DNA of 64,000 bases, taken from positions 17,145 through 81,144 of the forward strand of contig JAEUTC010000043.1 in the NCBI GenBank assembly GCA_016787985.1. Direction: 5' to 3'. Made by a program: the position numbers and the translations under genes. Origin of the DNA: Flavobacteriales bacterium. GTDB taxonomy: Bacteria > Bacteroidota > Bacteroidia > Flavobacteriales_F > PHOS-HE28. A model generated the notes under the pieces. The model was not told the DNA's origin. It made no database searches and saw only the letters and a list, made by a program, of their open reading frames with translations. This document shows positions 16,828 to 23,149 of the stretch, one piece after another (the stretch's first letter is position 1; every line of letters starts with the position of its first letter).

Positions 16828-16944
16828 GGATGCTTATCCAGCTCCTACCGTGCGAAGATGAGAAGTCTGCCGAGAAGCCTGAATGCGAACCTCCCACCCC
16901 AACCCGCGAACCAAGACCAACCTGGTGCTGTTCTGGACTACGCC

Positions 16945-17571
16945 ATGGAAAAGCTTCGGATCCTCCAATGTATTCTCTTGCTAGCGGTAACTTCCTCCTC
17001 GGCTCAAGACGTTGAGCATCCATTCCGTATGGGCAGCAACGTCGAGATCTCCGCCGCGCAGCTCCTGATCGCGGGAAGTAACCAATACGCGGACAACATC
17101 CTCGACCGCCAACGCGGCGACGCCACCTTTATCGGTGCCAGCTACCTGCTCGGCGACACCACCGACCAGGGCCGTGGCATCGGGCGTTTCGCCGTAGGGA
17201 TCGGCGCAGGAGCACTGCTATGGGAAGGTATCACCCTGATGCCTGTATTTGGTCAGGTCAACTGGCACCCCTTCGTCCGCCGAGCCCCATGGGCCAGCGT
17301 GCACCTCAGCCGCTTGGGCATCGCCATGCGCTTCGGCGGCATCCTCGGCGCGTGGAAACCCACCACCCGTGGCCAACTCGCCGGGCACACGTACACCGAC
17401 CTGGCCTTCAAGTACCCCGCCCACCTCGGTCGCTTCAACCTGAGCCTCGATGCAGGCCTCGGAATGATCCTTCTACGCGGTCCCTACACCATCGCTGAAG
17501 AAGGCTTGGTGGAGGACAGACGCTTCGCCGAGTTCATCTACCCACGGTTGGGTCTGAGCGTGGGTTTCTGA
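16945..17571 (+). CDS. secreted/outer-membrane beta-barrel-like protein (hypothetical)
   Basis: Signal peptide MEKLRILQCILLLAVTSSSAQ; Gly/aromatic-rich; terminates in ...GLSVGF (C-terminal Phe typical of OM barrels). The 5' part of the track ORF 16195..17571 is antisense to the GT2 gene. Confidence 0.55.
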   Translation: MEKLRILQCILLLAVTSSSAQDVEHPFRMGSNVEISAAQLLIAGSNQYADNILDRQRGDATFIGASYLLGDTTDQGRGIGRFAVGIGAGALLWEGITLMPVFGQVNWHPFVRRAPWASVHLSRLGIAMRFGGILGAWKPTTRGQLAGHTYTDLAFKYPAHLGRFNLSLDAGLGMILLRGPYTIAEEGLVEDRRFAEFIYPRLGLSVGF

Positions 17572-17593: not shown

Positions 17594-17932
17594 TCAACGC
17601 GCACTGCGGGCCCTGGCGTTGTAGGACAGGCAAATGCGCATGTAATACTGAAAGTCGTGATCGCGCTGGAGACCTTCAGCGTGGATGTAGCAATAGCCCT
17701 TGTAGGTCTTGCCCTTCATCAGCATGGTGGCGTAGCCCGCGCGCTCAGCCAGCACTTCCTGCAAATCCGGGTCGAAGCGCAGCATCAGGCTATCACCGCG
17801 AACGCATACACAGGTCTTCCCATTGACCATGAAATTGAGCACCCCGAACATCACCTTTTCTTCTACGGAGATGCCAAGGGTGGCGGCCAGGTGCTCACGC
17901 ACCCGGTCCGCCAGCGCTACATCGTACGGCAT
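17594..17932 (-). CDS. TfoX N-terminal domain family protein
   Basis: 112 aa from MPYDVALADRVREHLAATLG...EKVMFGVLNFMVNGKTCVCV; typical TfoX/Sxy N-terminal domain pattern. Confidence 0.7.
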   Translation of the reverse strand: MPYDVALADRVREHLAATLGISVEEKVMFGVLNFMVNGKTCVCVRGDSLMLRFDPDLQEVLAERAGYATMLMKGKTYKGYCYIHAEGLQRDHDFQYYMRICLSYNARARSAR

Positions 17933-17936
17933 CGTT

Positions 17937-18440: not shown

Positions 18441-19295
18441 TCAAGGCCGATGCACCACGGTGTGCTGGGACATGCGGGCATACTCCATTCCATCGAAGAT
18501 CAACGACATCCGCAAGGCATCGCCGCGAGAGCCCCCCGGGGTCAGGCCCGTGAACGCCTTGAAATCCTTGATGAAGTGTGCCTGGTCGAAAAAGGAGCTC
18601 TCGTAAGCGAGGCCCGTCAGGTCGTTCACCTCATCGAAGAGCATGCGGCGCAGGGCGGACTGGATGCGTACGGTACGCGAATACTGTTTCGGCGATAGGC
18701 CGATGAGCGTGGAGAACTTACGGGCCAGGTGGCGGCGATGCACATGGCTGCGCCGTGACAGTTCATCCACGGTGAGGCTCCCGTTCGTCGTGCGGATGTC
18801 CAAGAGAGTGCGCGCGATCACCGCATCAGCCTGTGGCCGCGTGGCCAAGCGATGGAACAAGAAGCCCTCCACCAGGTCGATCCGTTCTGCGGTGGTGCAC
18901 GCATCCAGGACCCGGCGCCCGATCACATCCCCCTCGAAACCGAACAACCCCTGCAGGGGCACCGCCGTGTTCTCGAACGCCTTCAACGGACCGCCCCAGA
19001 ACGGCTGGAAACCGCCGGGGTGGAAGCGCACCACGAACGACCCCGTGCGCCCCAGCGGACGCACCACGAACGGCTTCGTCAATTGACCGATCAGGAAGCA
19101 GCGCGGCAGATCCACCCACACGCCGGGCCGGGGCTGGTGCAGGTAGGGATCGCCGTAGTGGAAGATCAGCTTCATGGTGCCATCGGGCACGATGGTGTTC
19201 ATCACCGGCGTGTCGTGCGGTTCGCCCACGAGGTTCCAATGGCACATCACGTGCGCATCCAACCCGCGGGAAACTGGGAAGATCTCTGAACGCAT
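18441..19295 (-). CDS. AraC family transcriptional regulator
   Basis: 284 aa; C-terminal AraC-type HTH (RRSHVHRRHLARKFSTLIGLSPKQYSRTVRIQSALRRM...FFDQAHFIKDFKAFTGLTP). Confidence 0.8.
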   Translation of the reverse strand: MRSEIFPVSRGLDAHVMCHWNLVGEPHDTPVMNTIVPDGTMKLIFHYGDPYLHQPRPGVWVDLPRCFLIGQLTKPFVVRPLGRTGSFVVRFHPGGFQPFWGGPLKAFENTAVPLQGLFGFEGDVIGRRVLDACTTAERIDLVEGFLFHRLATRPQADAVIARTLLDIRTTNGSLTVDELSRRSHVHRRHLARKFSTLIGLSPKQYSRTVRIQSALRRMLFDEVNDLTGLAYESSFFDQAHFIKDFKAFTGLTPGGSRGDALRMSLIFDGMEYARMSQHTVVHRP

Positions 19296-19468
19296 GATAC
19301 TCCGTTGGGACCTCCGGTATTCAGGGGGCTAACTATCCGCCACACCGACTTCGGGCAACGCCACGGCAAAACTACATGCCAACGAAGGCTGGCCCTACAA
19401 GCGATGATGCCATGAAGTCCAGCGGCACGAACCAGCTGAGCGACCAAAGGCTGACACAGCGATCCCAA

Positions 19469-20101
19469 CTAGAAGTTGAATCCCACATGCAAACCCGGTT
19501 CGCCGAGGATGAACTTGGACCACTTGTCGTCCAGCTGCTTGAAGCCATCCGGTAACCGTGTGTGGTAGGCCCGGTGCGTGATGGCGATGGACGGTTGGAA
19601 GAAGAAACGGTCCTTGAAGAGCTTGATGTGATAGCCGGCCCGGTAGGTGTTGAAGACCTGGAACCCGCCATCGATCTTGTTCCCTTGGTCGTTCACGAAG
19701 TCCTGCAAGGTGGGCATCACGTTCAGCTCGGCATAGAGGCCCTTCCAAAAGAAGCGTTGATAGGAAAGCGAAAGGCCATACTCGCGCACATACCCTGGGA
19801 ATTTCTCTTCCGGCTTTTCGTAGGCATTGTTGAGGAACGGATGTATACCATTGGGCCAGGCATACTTCCAGGTCTTGGGTTCCACGGTGATCACATCCCG
19901 ACCCGTGAGGCGATAGCCGATGTTGAGTTGAAAGAAATCCGGTGGATTGTCGGTGGGCGCCAGGTTACCCACCAGCACGAAAAGGCTGGTTCCCACGAAC
20001 CAGCGCTTGTAGGTGCTGTCCGTTCTCGAGTATTGTGCTTGGAGGTTGAACGAGCTGGTCATCACCAGCGCAAGAATCACGAGTCCGATGTTCTTCTTCA
20101 T
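19469..20101 (-). CDS. outer-membrane beta-barrel protein, paralogue A
   Basis: About 210 aa from MKKNIGLVILALVMTSSFNLQAQ (signal peptide); ends ...GLHVGFNF; roughly 45% identical to the downstream paralogue. Confidence 0.7.
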   Translation of the reverse strand: MKKNIGLVILALVMTSSFNLQAQYSRTDSTYKRWFVGTSLFVLVGNLAPTDNPPDFFQLNIGYRLTGRDVITVEPKTWKYAWPNGIHPFLNNAYEKPEEKFPGYVREYGLSLSYQRFFWKGLYAELNVMPTLQDFVNDQGNKIDGGFQVFNTYRAGYHIKLFKDRFFFQPSIAITHRAYHTRLPDGFKQLDDKWSKFILGEPGLHVGFNF

Positions 20102-20161
20102 CACTTCTTCTGTTGTTTTCAACGACGGCGCAAAACAAGACCGGCGATGGGCCTCCACTCG

Positions 20162-20175
20162 TTCACTTTGGTGAA
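20162..20175. promoter_or_regulatory. 14-bp palindrome TTCACTTTGGTGAA about 65 bp upstream of OMP paralogue A (candidate Crp/Fnr-family or AraC operator)
   Basis: Inverted repeat TTCAC-N4-GTGAA embedded in a roughly 60-bp block conserved with the equivalent position upstream of paralogue B. Confidence 0.4.
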
Positions 20176-20317
20176 GGAATGCGCCACACGAACGCCTTTT
20201 TCCGGATGCTCCCGAGCCATGCAGGCATCGCCAGCACGCTCGTGCTACGCAGGACCGCATGGAAAATGAACCGACCCGTTGGTCGAGGATGACAGCCTGT
20301 CTGCCGCCCCTGGTCCT

Positions 20318-20935
20318 CTAGAAATTGAACCCGAAGTGAAGGCCTGGCTGGATGAAGTAGTTGGGCCATCTACTTTCCACGGCCTTGAACACTTCAGGAA
20401 CCTTCGTCCGTACCGGCCAATAGCTACAGCCCATGGCTGGCTCGAAGAAGAACCGGTTCTCCCAGAACCTGAACTGATAACCCAGGTGGAAGTTCAGGTA
20501 CAAGGTGTACCCATTGCCGATCTTCTTTTTGTCCTGATCCATGTATTTCTCGAAGGCGTTCAAGGCATAGATGGAAGTATAGACCCCTTTCCACCAGAAG
20601 CGCTGGTAGCCCACGGTTGGCGCCAGTATGCGCGCATGGCCGGGGTAGTTCAGGCCGGGTGCATCGAATGAGGGACCGAATGGAATACCGATCGGCCACG
20701 CGTAGATGGATCGTTTGAACTCGATCGAGATCACATCCTTCGGGGTTAGCCGATAGCCCACGTTCAACTGGACGTACTCAGGTTTGTTGACCCGATCCAG
20801 ATTCCCGAGCAAGTACAGTGAACTCCCAACGTACCACCGCCGATAGGTGCTGTCCTGCAGGGCAGTTGCAGCGCGGAGTTGGAGCGTGCTGGCCATCAAG
20901 ATCACAAAACCAATGAGAGTGCTTTTCTTCTGCAT
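20318..20935 (-). CDS. outer-membrane beta-barrel protein, paralogue B
   Basis: 205 aa; signal peptide MQKKSTLIGFVILMASTLQLRAA; ends ...GLHFGFNF; collinear similarity with paralogue A throughout. Confidence 0.7.
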   Translation of the reverse strand: MQKKSTLIGFVILMASTLQLRAATALQDSTYRRWYVGSSLYLLGNLDRVNKPEYVQLNVGYRLTPKDVISIEFKRSIYAWPIGIPFGPSFDAPGLNYPGHARILAPTVGYQRFWWKGVYTSIYALNAFEKYMDQDKKKIGNGYTLYLNFHLGYQFRFWENRFFFEPAMGCSYWPVRTKVPEVFKAVESRWPNYFIQPGLHFGFNF

Positions 20936-20992
20936 GCTACCCTACGTGTTGATCGAGGCCGCAAAAGAAGACCGGCGGGTCGCCCCACCGCG

Positions 20993-21006
20993 TTCACTTA
21001 AGTGAA
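20993..21006. promoter_or_regulatory. perfect 14-bp palindrome TTCACTTAAGTGAA upstream of OMP paralogue B
   Basis: Exact TTCAC-TTAA-GTGAA palindrome; the flanking block aagaccggcg...cgttcactt..gtgaaggaatgc is shared with the paralogue A upstream region. Confidence 0.45.
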
Positions 21007-21013
21007 GGAATGC

Positions 21014-21595
21014 TCAGCCCCTCTCCTTCTCGATGATCCGTGCCCTGAGCCGGCTCAACGATTGGGGGGTGATGCCCAGGAAGCTCGCCAGCTGGTGCTG
21101 TGGCACACGCTGAACGAGGTCCGGACGTGTGCGCAATAGGTTCAAGTACCGCTGTTCGGGTGATGAGGTCTTGAACGCATCGAACTCCACGCGCTCCTTC
21201 GCCAGTAGCTCTTCGGAAAGCACCTTACACAGCGTCTCGAAGCGCGGGAAACGGCTATTCATGTCCACCTCCAGGTCCGCGTCCGAAACGGTCAGGATGG
21301 TGTCTTCCACACAACTGATGGAATACTCGGAGGGCGTTCGGCTCACCACGCACGGTGGTGTCAAGGCCTCCAGCTCGCTATAGAAGGAGGTGGTCCGCTC
21401 CTCGCCATCCACGATGTAGTAGGTGCGGATGCAGCCTTCCAATACGAAGTAGCTGTTCCGCGATCGTTCTCCGGCGTTGAGCAGTATGGTCCCTTTCTTC
21501 ACCGTTCGGAAGATGTCCAAGGAACCGACCACGCTCTTCTCCTCCTCCGTCAAGGTCATGTACTTGGCGATGAAGGCGAAGAGTTTGTTCTGCAT
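21014..21595 (-). CDS. Crp/Fnr family transcriptional regulator
   Basis: 193 aa; N-terminal cNMP-binding-like beta-roll (GTILLNAGERSRNSYFVLEGCIRTYY) and C-terminal HTH (QHQLASFLGITPQSLSRLRARI). Confidence 0.85.
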   Translation of the reverse strand: MQNKLFAFIAKYMTLTEEEKSVVGSLDIFRTVKKGTILLNAGERSRNSYFVLEGCIRTYYIVDGEERTTSFYSELEALTPPCVVSRTPSEYSISCVEDTILTVSDADLEVDMNSRFPRFETLCKVLSEELLAKERVEFDAFKTSSPEQRYLNLLRTRPDLVQRVPQHQLASFLGITPQSLSRLRARIIEKERG

Positions 21596-21769
21596 GGATC
21601 ACCGGTCCAGTCTTCGACGGTCATGCGCTACACCCCGCTGATCTTCTTGCGCCACAACCGAACAGACAGCAAAGGTACCGACTCAACACGAGGCGTGCTA
21701 AACGTGGGCTACGGACCTAAGGACCGCAAATCCTGGAACACCTGGCCCCAGGAGAAGGCCGGCACCCGA

Positions 21770-23149
21770 TCACTCCTTCAACTTCACACGCACCTTCTCG
21801 CCATCAGCAGTGATCCGGACCAACGCGTAGTTGCTCACGTTCGCGGGAGAGCCCCAATGCCTCACATCCATCGTCGGCGTAGCGGTGCCCGAACCATCGG
21901 GGTACACGGTAACCGTGTAGCCCCCTGTGGGGGTTTGGGTGGTGTGGGTGTACTTGGTCGCCACGAATTGCACGATCACATGGTATTCACCGGGCTTCAG
22001 GTGCTGGAACGAGAAGCCTCCCCGGTCATCGGTGACCTCGGTGAGCAGGGTCTGTTCCTTCACTTCCAACGGCAGCGGGAAACCTGCGCAGCCGTTGAGC
22101 ACCTGGCCAGCCACGATGGTCGGGGGGAATTTGGTGCGGACGGCGGTGTTGAAGGCCAGCCACTCCTTGAAGTACGGCGTTTGGGGAATGAGCATCACGA
22201 TGCTGCCCTTGGGCGCAAGGATCCTCTTGGGCCGATCCAGCAAGGCCCCGGGCATGCCTTCGTCCGTGGTGTACGCCTGGCCTTCGATGCTGGAATTGCC
22301 CGCGCTGATCATCGCCCGGGCCGCGGCCGCATCGAACGGGGTCACGATGGGGTTGCGGTCGGCTTGCGTATCCATGTAGGTCACGCCGAAGGAGCCGGGG
22401 TCCTTGCTCACGAACAGGATCCTCCGCGACTCCTTCTCGATCACGATCTTGTACGTGTTCGTCGCGGTCAACGTATTACGGAGTTCCACCACGAAGACGT
22501 CCACCACCTCGCCGATGGCACACGACGGCATCTTCATCTCCTGCAAGCTCTCGATCTCCCAGCGCATCACCTTCGTGCGGTAGCCGTCATCGAAGGTCAC
22601 CTGCGGGATCAGGGCCCGGTAGCCCGCCTTCAGGGGCAATAGGCTGACCAGGAACTCCAACGAACTCCCCAGGAAGAACGGCTCTTCGAGGGGTTCATCG
22701 AAATGCTCCTTCTCCCCTGTCCTGTACACCTCGATATCGCCCTTCAATGTCTTGCCGCAGACCAGGTCGTACGAGAAGCCCACCGTCTCGGCCTGCGCAC
22801 GGATGGGCCCGAAGGTGCGGGCGTCCAACACGAGTTTCCGTTTCACCACATCCGCACCCTGCTCCGTATACCGCTCTTCGATCACGATCTCGCCCGCCGT
22901 GCGGCTGATGGTCACGAACCGTTGATCCGGCTTCTGGGGTTCTCCGGAAGCGAATAGACCGCCGGTCGGTCGTTCCCACACGAAACTGCCGGTGTGCAAC
23001 AGCGCCGTGTTGAGGCTGGCACTACCGGGCAGCACGATATCGGGCTTTTGCGCCACCACACGGGTGGGAGCCATGAGCAGTACCGCCATTGCGGTCGAGA
23101 GGGCGAAGGAGACGCGGAACACCATTCCAGCTGATAGCATGTTGATCAT
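21770..23149 (-). CDS. secreted hypothetical protein with a C-terminal carboxypeptidase-regulatory-like beta-sandwich
   Basis: 459 aa; signal peptide (AVLLMAPTRVVAQ); the C-terminal GGFSFQHLKPGEYHVIVQFV segment is typical of CarbopepD_reg-like domains. Confidence 0.55.
   Translation of the reverse strand: MINMLSAGMVFRVSFALSTAMAVLLMAPTRVVAQKPDIVLPGSASLNTALLHTGSFVWERPTGGLFASGEPQKPDQRFVTISRTAGEIVIEERYTEQGADVVKRKLVLDARTFGPIRAQAETVGFSYDLVCGKTLKGDIEVYRTGEKEHFDEPLEEPFFLGSSLEFLVSLLPLKAGYRALIPQVTFDDGYRTKVMRWEIESLQEMKMPSCAIGEVVDVFVVELRNTLTATNTYKIVIEKESRRILFVSKDPGSFGVTYMDTQADRNPIVTPFDAAAARAMISAGNSSIEGQAYTTDEGMPGALLDRPKRILAPKGSIVMLIPQTPYFKEWLAFNTAVRTKFPPTIVAGQVLNGCAGFPLPLEVKEQTLLTEVTDDRGGFSFQHLKPGEYHVIVQFVATKYTHTTQTPTGGYTVTVYPDGSGTATPTMDVRHWGSPANVSNYALVRITADGEKVRVKLKE

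Follow-up and report, generated by a model that had tools for sequence, protein, structure and literature searches.

We analysed a 64,000-nucleotide stretch of a Flavobacteriales genome (hereafter the window), which carries on its minus strand a gene for a short regulator of the Crp/Fnr family (here crp) followed by two paralogous genes, OMP1 and OMP2, for predicted 8-stranded outer-membrane beta-barrel proteins (OMPs). Upstream of each barrel gene lies a 14-bp palindrome made of two 5-bp half-sites separated by four bases (5-N4-5), and comparison with related loci makes it very likely that these two dyads are sites for the Crp-like regulator and that they control both barrel genes. The coordinates of the locus are collected in Table 1. 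OMP1 and OMP2 lie head-to-tail and share 38% identity along their whole length (E 5e-55); both begin with a segment resembling a signal peptide and end in GLH(F/V)GFNF. The start of OMP2 was set at MKKNIGL (20101) from homologue alignments, the mechanical open reading frame (ORF) reaching to 20260.

A preliminary description of this DNA had reported two similar barrel genes, each with a 14-bp palindrome upstream, and all of its coordinates proved correct. The sequence TTCAC-N4-GTGAA has only two exact matches in the window, both at these promoters, against 0.09 expected from shuffles, and none of 100 shuffles contained two. The site 1 dyad starts 8 nt past the crp stop codon; the distance from dyad centre to ATG is 64.5 nt for OMP1 and 67.5 nt for OMP2. 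When the two upstream regions were aligned, 44 of 56 columns (79%) were identical over 21015..20960 and its counterpart, from GCATTCC through TTTTGCG, compared with 17 of 52 in the columns beyond this shared block. In both promoters a sequence of the Bacteroidetes −7 box type begins 30 nt beyond base 8 of the dyad.

Table 1. Genes and promoter features of the crp-OMP1-OMP2 locus (window positions).
Feature	Position	Strand	Remarks
Crp/Fnr-family regulator gene (crp)	21595..21014	minus	193 amino acids (aa); cyclic nucleotide monophosphate (cNMP)-binding-like N-terminal domain and C-terminal helix-turn-helix (HTH)
OMP1 gene	20935..20318	minus	205 aa; predicted 8-stranded outer-membrane beta-barrel
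OMP2 gene	20101..19469	minus	210 aa; OMP1 paralogue
AraC-type gene	19295..18441	minus	DUF6597 + HTH_18
Glyoxalase-fold gene	beyond AraC gene	minus	
Site 1, extended block	20991..21013	minus	GCATTCC-TTCACTTAAGTGAA-CG; 14-bp dyad 20993-21006
OMP1 −7 box	20969..20962	minus	TTCTTTTG; predicted transcription start site (TSS) ~20957, leader 22 nt; family consensus TAcTTTTG
Spacer between dyad and −7 box of OMP1	20963..20990	minus	GC-rich hairpin 20990..20973, then T-run
Site 2, block	20160..20182	minus	GCATTCC-TTCACCAAAGTGAA-CG; dyad 20162-20175, plus-strand reading TTCACTTTGGTGAA
OMP2 −7 box	20138..20131	minus	TTGTTTTG; predicted TSS ~20126, leader 25 nt
crp −7 box	21677..21670	minus	TACCTTTG; canonical; pattern scan; no palindrome alongside
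Terminator-like hairpin and T-run	20271..20286	minus	32 nt past OMP1 stop; consensus match only

The comparative set comprised 80 genome loci of 8.6 kb from Cytophagales, Chitinophagales, Sphingobacteriales, Flavobacteriales and Saprospiraceae. The extended motif cATTTC-TT(A/C)ACTTAAGTGAA-CG was found upstream of 78 of the 80 OMP1 orthologues and 46 of the 56 OMP2-type genes, in constant orientation, with the GTGAA half nearest the gene. Its commonest form, TTAAC-TTAA-GTGAA, has one asymmetric position (TTAAC...GTGAA in 54/78 OMP1 promoters), and the fully symmetric TTCAC form carried by the window is a minority (8/78). From the 8th base of the dyad to a TAnnTTTG box the distance is 30 nt in 67/78 OMP1 and 40/46 OMP2 promoters and 29 nt in most others, and the box reads exactly TACTTTTG in 40 of the 78 OMP1 promoters. 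Over 61 non-redundant promoters the mean pairwise identity was 94% for the dyad 14-mer, 77% for its 5' flank, 70% for the −7 box, 49% for the spacer and 43% for the 3' end of the upstream gene (crp), which makes the dyad the best-conserved non-coding element of these promoters. Even where two genomes are saturated at fourfold-degenerate sites (0.21-0.31 identity), the motif stays intact, which indicates that its conservation comes from selection and not from recent common descent alone. The OMP2 genes that have no motif mostly follow OMP1 at only 50-70 nt (L015, L021, L044, L048, L076) and, given this short distance, are presumably co-transcribed with it.

Elsewhere the motif is rare. The 619 kb of loci held only ~3 other exact matches to TT(A/C)AC-N4-GTGAA, and when metagenome contigs were scanned with the 19-mer TTCTTAACTTAAGTGAACG we found 91 exact sites in 80 loci, 86 of which precede an OMP1- or OMP2-family gene at the right distance. 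The remaining five comprise a contig end with the N-terminus of OMP1, a DUF6326 gene, a disrupted OMP1 and two others. The earlier suggestion of a functional operator in the retained palindrome is thus strongly supported by its conservation, by its fixed distance to the −7 box and by its near-exclusivity to barrel promoters in metagenomes; within the sequence examined, the motif clearly neither occurs at random frequency nor lacks enrichment in promoters.

By its sequence, the protein encoded by crp belongs to the CRP/FNR superfamily. It matches Pfam PF00027 over residues 30-103 with 33.1 bits against a gathering score of 27.5 (E 5.7e-8). The HTH_Crp_2 profile reached 17.5 bits, below its 27-bit cutoff, and the C-terminal Crp-type HTH was recognised from full-length alignments to 3DN7 and FNR chains, which span it. 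The closest solved structure is 3DN7, a cyclic nucleotide binding regulatory protein (E 5e-22, residues 3-188), which shares the short Crp architecture of ~190 aa and an HTH of the form ...ASYLG..P..LS..R. It appears to be a paralogue and not an orthologue, since E is just 5e-22 over the full length while orthologues are 62-95% identical; the literature searched gave no function, ligand or DNA site for it. The recognition helix of the window protein reads PQSLSRLRARI, and the segment RVPQHQLASYLGIKPQSLSRLRARI is nearly invariant in 66 orthologues.

Both name-giving members of the superfamily were ruled out as identities for this protein. FNR proper, the oxygen-sensing [4Fe-4S] regulator, has an N-terminal Cys cluster that together with a central Cys ligates the iron-sulphur cluster, an E-x-x-S-R helix and a TTGAT-N4-ATCAA box, instead of which we found a Q-x-x-S-R helix, a TT(A/C)AC-N4-GTGAA box and no Cys in the first 54 residues, so that the window regulator is not an oxygen sensor of the FNR type. 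CRP proper has an R-E-x-x-x-R helix and reads TGTGA-N6-TCACA, whereas here the helix is P-Q-S-L-S-R and the spacing N4; as to cAMP binding, the match is to a generic cNMP domain, and the position matched by eye to the phosphate-binding Arg is Lys in most orthologues. The Cys residues of the window protein stand at 55, 82, 95 and 123, not at FNR positions. These four are kept in at least 90% of the 66 orthologues (in GCIRTYY, TPPCV, ISCVED and xxC at the start of the long helix) and are not shared by paralogues, and a redox, metal or cluster-based mode of sensing is possible. What such a four-Cys sensor detects might be a redox or metal signal, or else a small hydrophobic compound admitted by the barrel.

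The adjacent Crp/Fnr gene had been named as a natural candidate to bind the palindrome, and this proposal gains support from its linkage to the motif in ~66-70 of the 80 loci (intact orthologues directly upstream of OMP1 in 66, relics in ~4 more), from the 5-N4-5 geometry and from the Q-S-R helix. The dyad has the 14-bp layout common to Escherichia coli FNR and Rhodobacter sphaeroides FnrL, which by sequence share the superfamily fold; T, T and A are kept at half-site positions 1, 2 and 4, and position 3 differs, being G in FNR and CRP. In FNR, Glu209, Ser212 and Arg213 have been implicated in reading TTGAT-N4-ATCAA (PMC2908626). Alignment through the HTH pairs these residues with Gln178, Ser181 and Arg182, so that the Ser and Arg of the E-x-x-S-R motif are retained and the Glu is replaced by Gln. 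According to Rodionov et al., the bases contacted co-vary with residues 180 and 181 of CRP, and NssR of Campylobacter jejuni, with Gln181, reads TTAAC-N4-GTTAA (PMC1274295). The NssR half-site TTAAC is also the distal half-site of the family dyad, and the window protein carries Gln at the specificity position.

It is indeed the NssR site that the predicted site of the window regulator resembles most. The two share the distal half-site, the spacing and the Gln at CRP position 181 (PMC1274295), and NssR is an activator of a small regulon, as we propose for the window regulator; the likeness is one of site and residue. They differ in the proximal half-site, which is GTGAA here, and in their targets, which are globins for NssR and outer-membrane barrels in the window. 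The signal of NssR is nitrosative stress.

A further hint of protein-DNA specificity, in a small sample, came from natural variation at the same residue. Four orthologues (L080, L022, L063, L029) have Glu in place of Gln (PESLSR versus PQSLSR), and the proximal half-site GTCAA, that is TTGAC, with G at position 3 as in FNR boxes, accompanies two of these four and none of the ~60 Gln forms. Paralogous short Crp genes in the flanks of the fetched loci behave similarly: they have a 5-N4-5 dyad of their own 5-21 nt past the stop codon and 29 nt before a −7-like box, found for 5 of ~16 paralogues against 59 of 1010 control ORFs. These dyads are TTGCC-N4-GGCAA, TTATC-N4-GGTAA, TTATC-N4-GATAA, TTAAT-N4-GTTAA and GTAAC-N4-GTTAG (as sequences TTGCCAAATGGCAA, TTATCATTTGGTAA, TTATCTTATGATAA, TTAATATATGTTAA and GTAACCCAGGTTAG), and the paralogue loci are L012 (~1341-1400), L023 (~2008-2070), L177 (two genes), L098, L024 and L035. 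Glu-type Crp paralogues go with TTGAT or TTGAA dyads. The counts for the paralogue dyads and for the Glu/Gln exchange are small, and we take both as supporting hints, not as proof.

Next, we considered the position of the dyads within the promoters. The −7 box TAnnTTTG of the flavobacterial sigma-A occupies −12 to −5 (PMC9723704). With the 30-nt offset this would put the dyad axis at approximately −42.5 (−41.5 with the 29 nt of the paralogues), so that the dyad would span approximately −49 to −36, beside the expected −33 element. In class II activation a CRP/FNR dimer lies over the upstream promoter element, centred near −41.5/−42.5, and contacts RNA polymerase (PMC10187061). A site near −42 would thus point to an activator site rather than to a classical repressor operator, and a centre ~42 bp upstream of the predicted start would match class II activation of the FNR type. 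The R. sphaeroides FnrL, which activates the 8-stranded barrel gene ompW (PMC2908626), provides a precedent for FNR-type control of a barrel. Beyond the residues and bases given above, the window regulator would differ from the global FNR in being local, with one to three adjacent genes as targets, and in working with a polymerase that carries the Bacteroidetes sigma-A and reads a −7/−33 promoter; a sigma-70 promoter scan gave nothing, as expected for Bacteroidetes.

These observations can be brought together in one explanation, which we regard as probable. A dimer of the Crp-like protein would bind both palindromes, each ~42 bp upstream of the predicted start and right beside the −33 region of a sigma-A promoter of the Bacteroidetes kind; the bound dimer would contact RNA polymerase in a class II arrangement and activate transcription; and a signal received by the sensor domain would turn on both barrel genes from their separate promoters, the second of which would have arisen by duplication of a crp-omp unit and loss of the second crp. 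As for the sign of regulation taken by itself, activation seems rather better favoured than repression. The regulator gene would be driven from a promoter of its own without a dyad, and is probably transcribed from the canonical −7 box listed in Table 1. Neither in the window nor in the 80 genome loci does a copy of the dyad motif precede crp, and there is accordingly no sign of crp autoregulation via the dyad.

The spacer between dyad and −7 box calls for separate mention. In the window its hairpin has 7 pairs, 6 of them G-C, according to a scan for terminator-like structures, and across 228 promoters 59% of the positions of the equivalent stem pair, compared with 28-48% in shifted controls, with 2 of 6 pairs beating all shuffles. 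The covariation of this stem is real but modest, and its folding in the window did not significantly exceed that of shuffles (z −1.4). The hairpin is probably the terminator of crp embedded in the OMP1 promoter, and as such would not be an alternative to the operator. Another terminator-like hairpin lies between OMP2 and the AraC-type gene (19367-19393, minus strand), and its T-run coincides with a −7 box, TAGTTTTG (19374..19367). The T-runs of both hairpins, crp/OMP1 and OMP2/araC, overlay the −7 box of the next gene, and this T-rich promoter element of Bacteroidetes may serve at the same time as the tail of a terminator.

The main rival to class II activation keeps the protein and the site and reverses the sign: the Crp-like dimer would repress by blocking polymerase at the −33 region until the signal releases it. 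The dyad does border on the stretch in which sigma-ABfr reads a −33 element; a TAnnTTTG box in perfect form occurs in most orthologous promoters, which might be active unaided; and a Crp homologue of Porphyromonas gingivalis has been proposed as a repressor (PMC12040651). A centre at approximately −41.5/−42.5 with rigid spacing to the core promoter is, however, what marks class II activation by Crp/Fnr proteins (PMC10187061). Sites for repressors as a rule lie across the core promoter or the TSS. Moreover, spacing to within 1 nt matters for contact between activator and polymerase and far less for occlusion, and in our reading of the promoter alignment no TTG is seen at the expected −33 position. 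Taken together, we judge repression rather unlikely. Several points nevertheless weigh against the class II explanation as a whole. Bacteroidetes have no well-defined −33 element (PMC7366714), and for this reason its apparent absence here is weak evidence that an activator is needed. The −42.5 position depends on the consensus −7 box, and the perfect box of most orthologous promoters would also be compatible with repression. Horizontal transfer between classes accounts for some of the sequence conservation, 6-8 loci have the motif without a crp gene within 4 kb, and two of the four Glu variants retain GTGAA, the Glu/Gln cases being few and not fully independent.

The loci that have the motif and lack a nearby crp could also be read as a sign that another factor, the AraC-type neighbour or an unlinked regulator, binds the palindrome and that the Crp gene is a mere neighbour, the more so as the AraC gene adjoins OMP2 in the window. 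The preliminary description had placed the barrel genes between the two regulators, but the AraC gene did not hold up as a conserved neighbour: none of the 80 related loci has it in its flanks, not even L001 with an OMP1 that is 96% identical, and its place in the window is thus incidental. Direct repeats are the typical target of AraC-type proteins. The palindrome is an FNR-type 5-N4-5 dyad with a TT..A pattern whose bases match the helix according to the published rules, and it is the Crp gene that is linked to it. We find a different binder very improbable. Also to be weighed is a structural role for the conserved block, as a crp terminator, a leader RNA or the recombination site of a mobile cassette. 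The terminator-like hairpin beside the dyad, with some covariation of its stem, and the signs of horizontal transfer of the cassette would fit such a role. The dyad itself, however, could form a stem of just 5 A/T-rich pairs and lacks its own T-run; site 2 sits 143 nt past the OMP1 stop and not behind crp; the RNA folds no better than shuffles (z −1.4 and −0.7); and the conservation is at the level of sequence, not compensatory, and tied to the −7 box. The flanks contain no recurrent integrase or transposase, and an Rfam scan of 19200-21800 returned only one sub-threshold chance match. A structural element in place of an operator is hardly to be expected on these data. An RNA leader or riboswitch was dropped as a candidate, since neither the two upstream blocks nor the spacer between OMP1 and OMP2 folded better than shuffles.

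To return to the duplication that forms part of the class II explanation, an OMP2-type gene stands downstream of OMP1 in ~55 of the 80 loci. A full second crp precedes it in L019 and L032 and a relic of the Crp C-terminus in L013, L025 and L072, and many OMP2 upstream regions still resemble the coding end ...SRLRARILEKK*. The retained second crp genes and relics suggest that the second promoter came from duplication of a crp-omp unit with later loss of the second crp. Of the earlier proposal that the palindrome was kept after a gene duplication, the retention stands, while the duplication was probably that of the whole crp-omp unit and not of the OMP gene alone.

The cassette also shows signs of exchange between lineages. 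The mature OMP1 region is ~85% identical between classes and 87% within genera, and carries almost no phylogenetic signal. Between Dyadobacter and Saprospiraceae or Pedobacter the identity at fourfold sites is 0.65-0.72 (e.g. L054 versus L033, L058 versus L043), which for these cross-class pairs indicates horizontal exchange of the cassette. In other cross-class OMP1 pairs the silent sites are saturated and the proteins are still 80-93% identical, which indicates strong purifying selection. We therefore read the three genes as what appears to be a self-contained cassette of sensor and envelope proteins, conserved across Bacteroidota and partly exchanged horizontally. Four carriers are labelled as non-Bacteroidota, namely L026 (Campylobacteraceae), L065 (Hydrocarboniphaga), L075 (Hyphomicrobiales) and P0047 (Nostoc sp.); their cassettes are typical, and the labels are probably binning or contamination artefacts.

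The barrel proteins themselves belong to a family without annotation. Each has a predicted signal peptide, eight strands and a C-terminal aromatic residue, and both model as 8-stranded outer-membrane beta-barrels. We found 1334 homologues of OMP1 and 1852 of OMP2, which are called hypothetical where they are named and come from Bacteroidota-type sources. A profile search of 1.8 billion cluster representatives gave 365 clusters at E <= 0.001, of which 48 also passed E <= 1e-30, few enough to speak of a compact family. Scans of OMP1 and OMP2 against Pfam and NCBIfam gave no match, a Pfam scan of ten distant barrel relatives no credible match, and a PADLOC scan no match of OMP1 or OMP2 to a defence system; a profile search of the family against PDB sequences likewise returned nothing, and Foldseek against the PDB returned weak, generic barrel matches. 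No significant profile match was found between OMP1 or OMP2 and the named OMP families OmpA_membrane, OmpW, OMP_b-brl and PagL. Identity to known small 8-stranded barrels (OprF/OmpA N-domain, NspA, OmpX/Ail, OmpW, CarO, PagL) is at most 17%, and, compared with these, the window family is unusually conserved in its mature region between classes, the long loop included, which is unusual for a surface-exposed protein. A PagL-type hydrolase is unlikely, no His/Ser pair being invariant across the OMP1 and OMP2 subfamilies. A role of the barrel as channel or binder is a guess.

Taken as a whole, the locus offers a well-supported regulatory module of a familiar type, joined to a barrel family without annotation. 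No paper with the exact motif strings came up in a literature search, and the literature on DUF6326, DUF6567, 3DN7 and Crp/Fnr proteins in Bacteroidota yielded nothing describing this regulon. Apart from the gut Bacteroides, gene regulation has been poorly charted in Bacteroidota, whose genomes are rich in short Crp-like regulators. The module supplies a testable triplet of regulator, operator and target, with a 14-bp site in rigid geometry for an unusual sigma-A polymerase and a predicted specificity rule that couples Gln to TT(A/C)AC and Glu to TTGAx. Its inducing signal, if found, would assign a function to ~3,000 non-redundant (90%-identity) clusters of 'hypothetical' proteins, and the dyad with its promoter is a possible inducible expression part for Bacteroidota genetics. 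The module also draws attention to its 8-stranded barrels, a compact family that is highly conserved and has in part been passed on horizontally. The private dyads of the paralogues suggest a design of 'regulator, then private site, then target', in which the dyad may lie a few bases past the regulator stop, with the target's −7 box 29-30 nt further on. Tentatively, and with considerable doubt, the cassette can be seen as one instance of such a design throughout Bacteroidota, in which a short Crp-like sensor stands directly before its target, with a private 5-N4-5 dyad and the terminator of the regulator in the target promoter; the present module would then be a unit of sensor and barrel that moves horizontally, its barrel under unusually strong constraint.

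Finally, we looked at the surroundings of the cassette. AraC and glyoxalase genes were rejected as conserved partners, as none was found in the 80 loci except for one unrelated glyoxalase match (L028). Just downstream of the glyoxalase gene of the window is a gene with a TfoX_N domain (17594-17935, minus strand), as read from the identical Logan contig L081 (6004-6342), with no linkage to the cassette in other loci. The C-terminal part of a long mechanical ORF at ~16900-17571 (plus strand) resembles a small secreted barrel (MEKLRILQCILLLAVTSSSAQ ... LGLSVGF) and had no sequence relation to OMP1 or OMP2 in tblastn. In the comparative set the flanking genes are mostly not conserved, with the exceptions of DUF6326, DUF6567 and a Zn-dehydrogenase, none of which is present in the window. 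A gene for the inner-membrane protein DUF6326 follows the OMP2-type stop at ~10 nt in 33 of the 80 loci (e.g. L008, 5406-5837), a gap that suggests an operon; the DUF6567 lipoprotein occurs in 12 loci and the Zn-dehydrogenase in 7. In L104 the DUF6326 gene comes directly after the motif. In L076 (2571-3667) a third copy of the motif, TTAACTTAAGTGAACG, precedes two overlapping genes, for a lipoprotein of 132 aa and a multi-pass membrane protein of 207 aa, in place of an OMP-family gene, which suggests that the regulon is not always confined to barrels.

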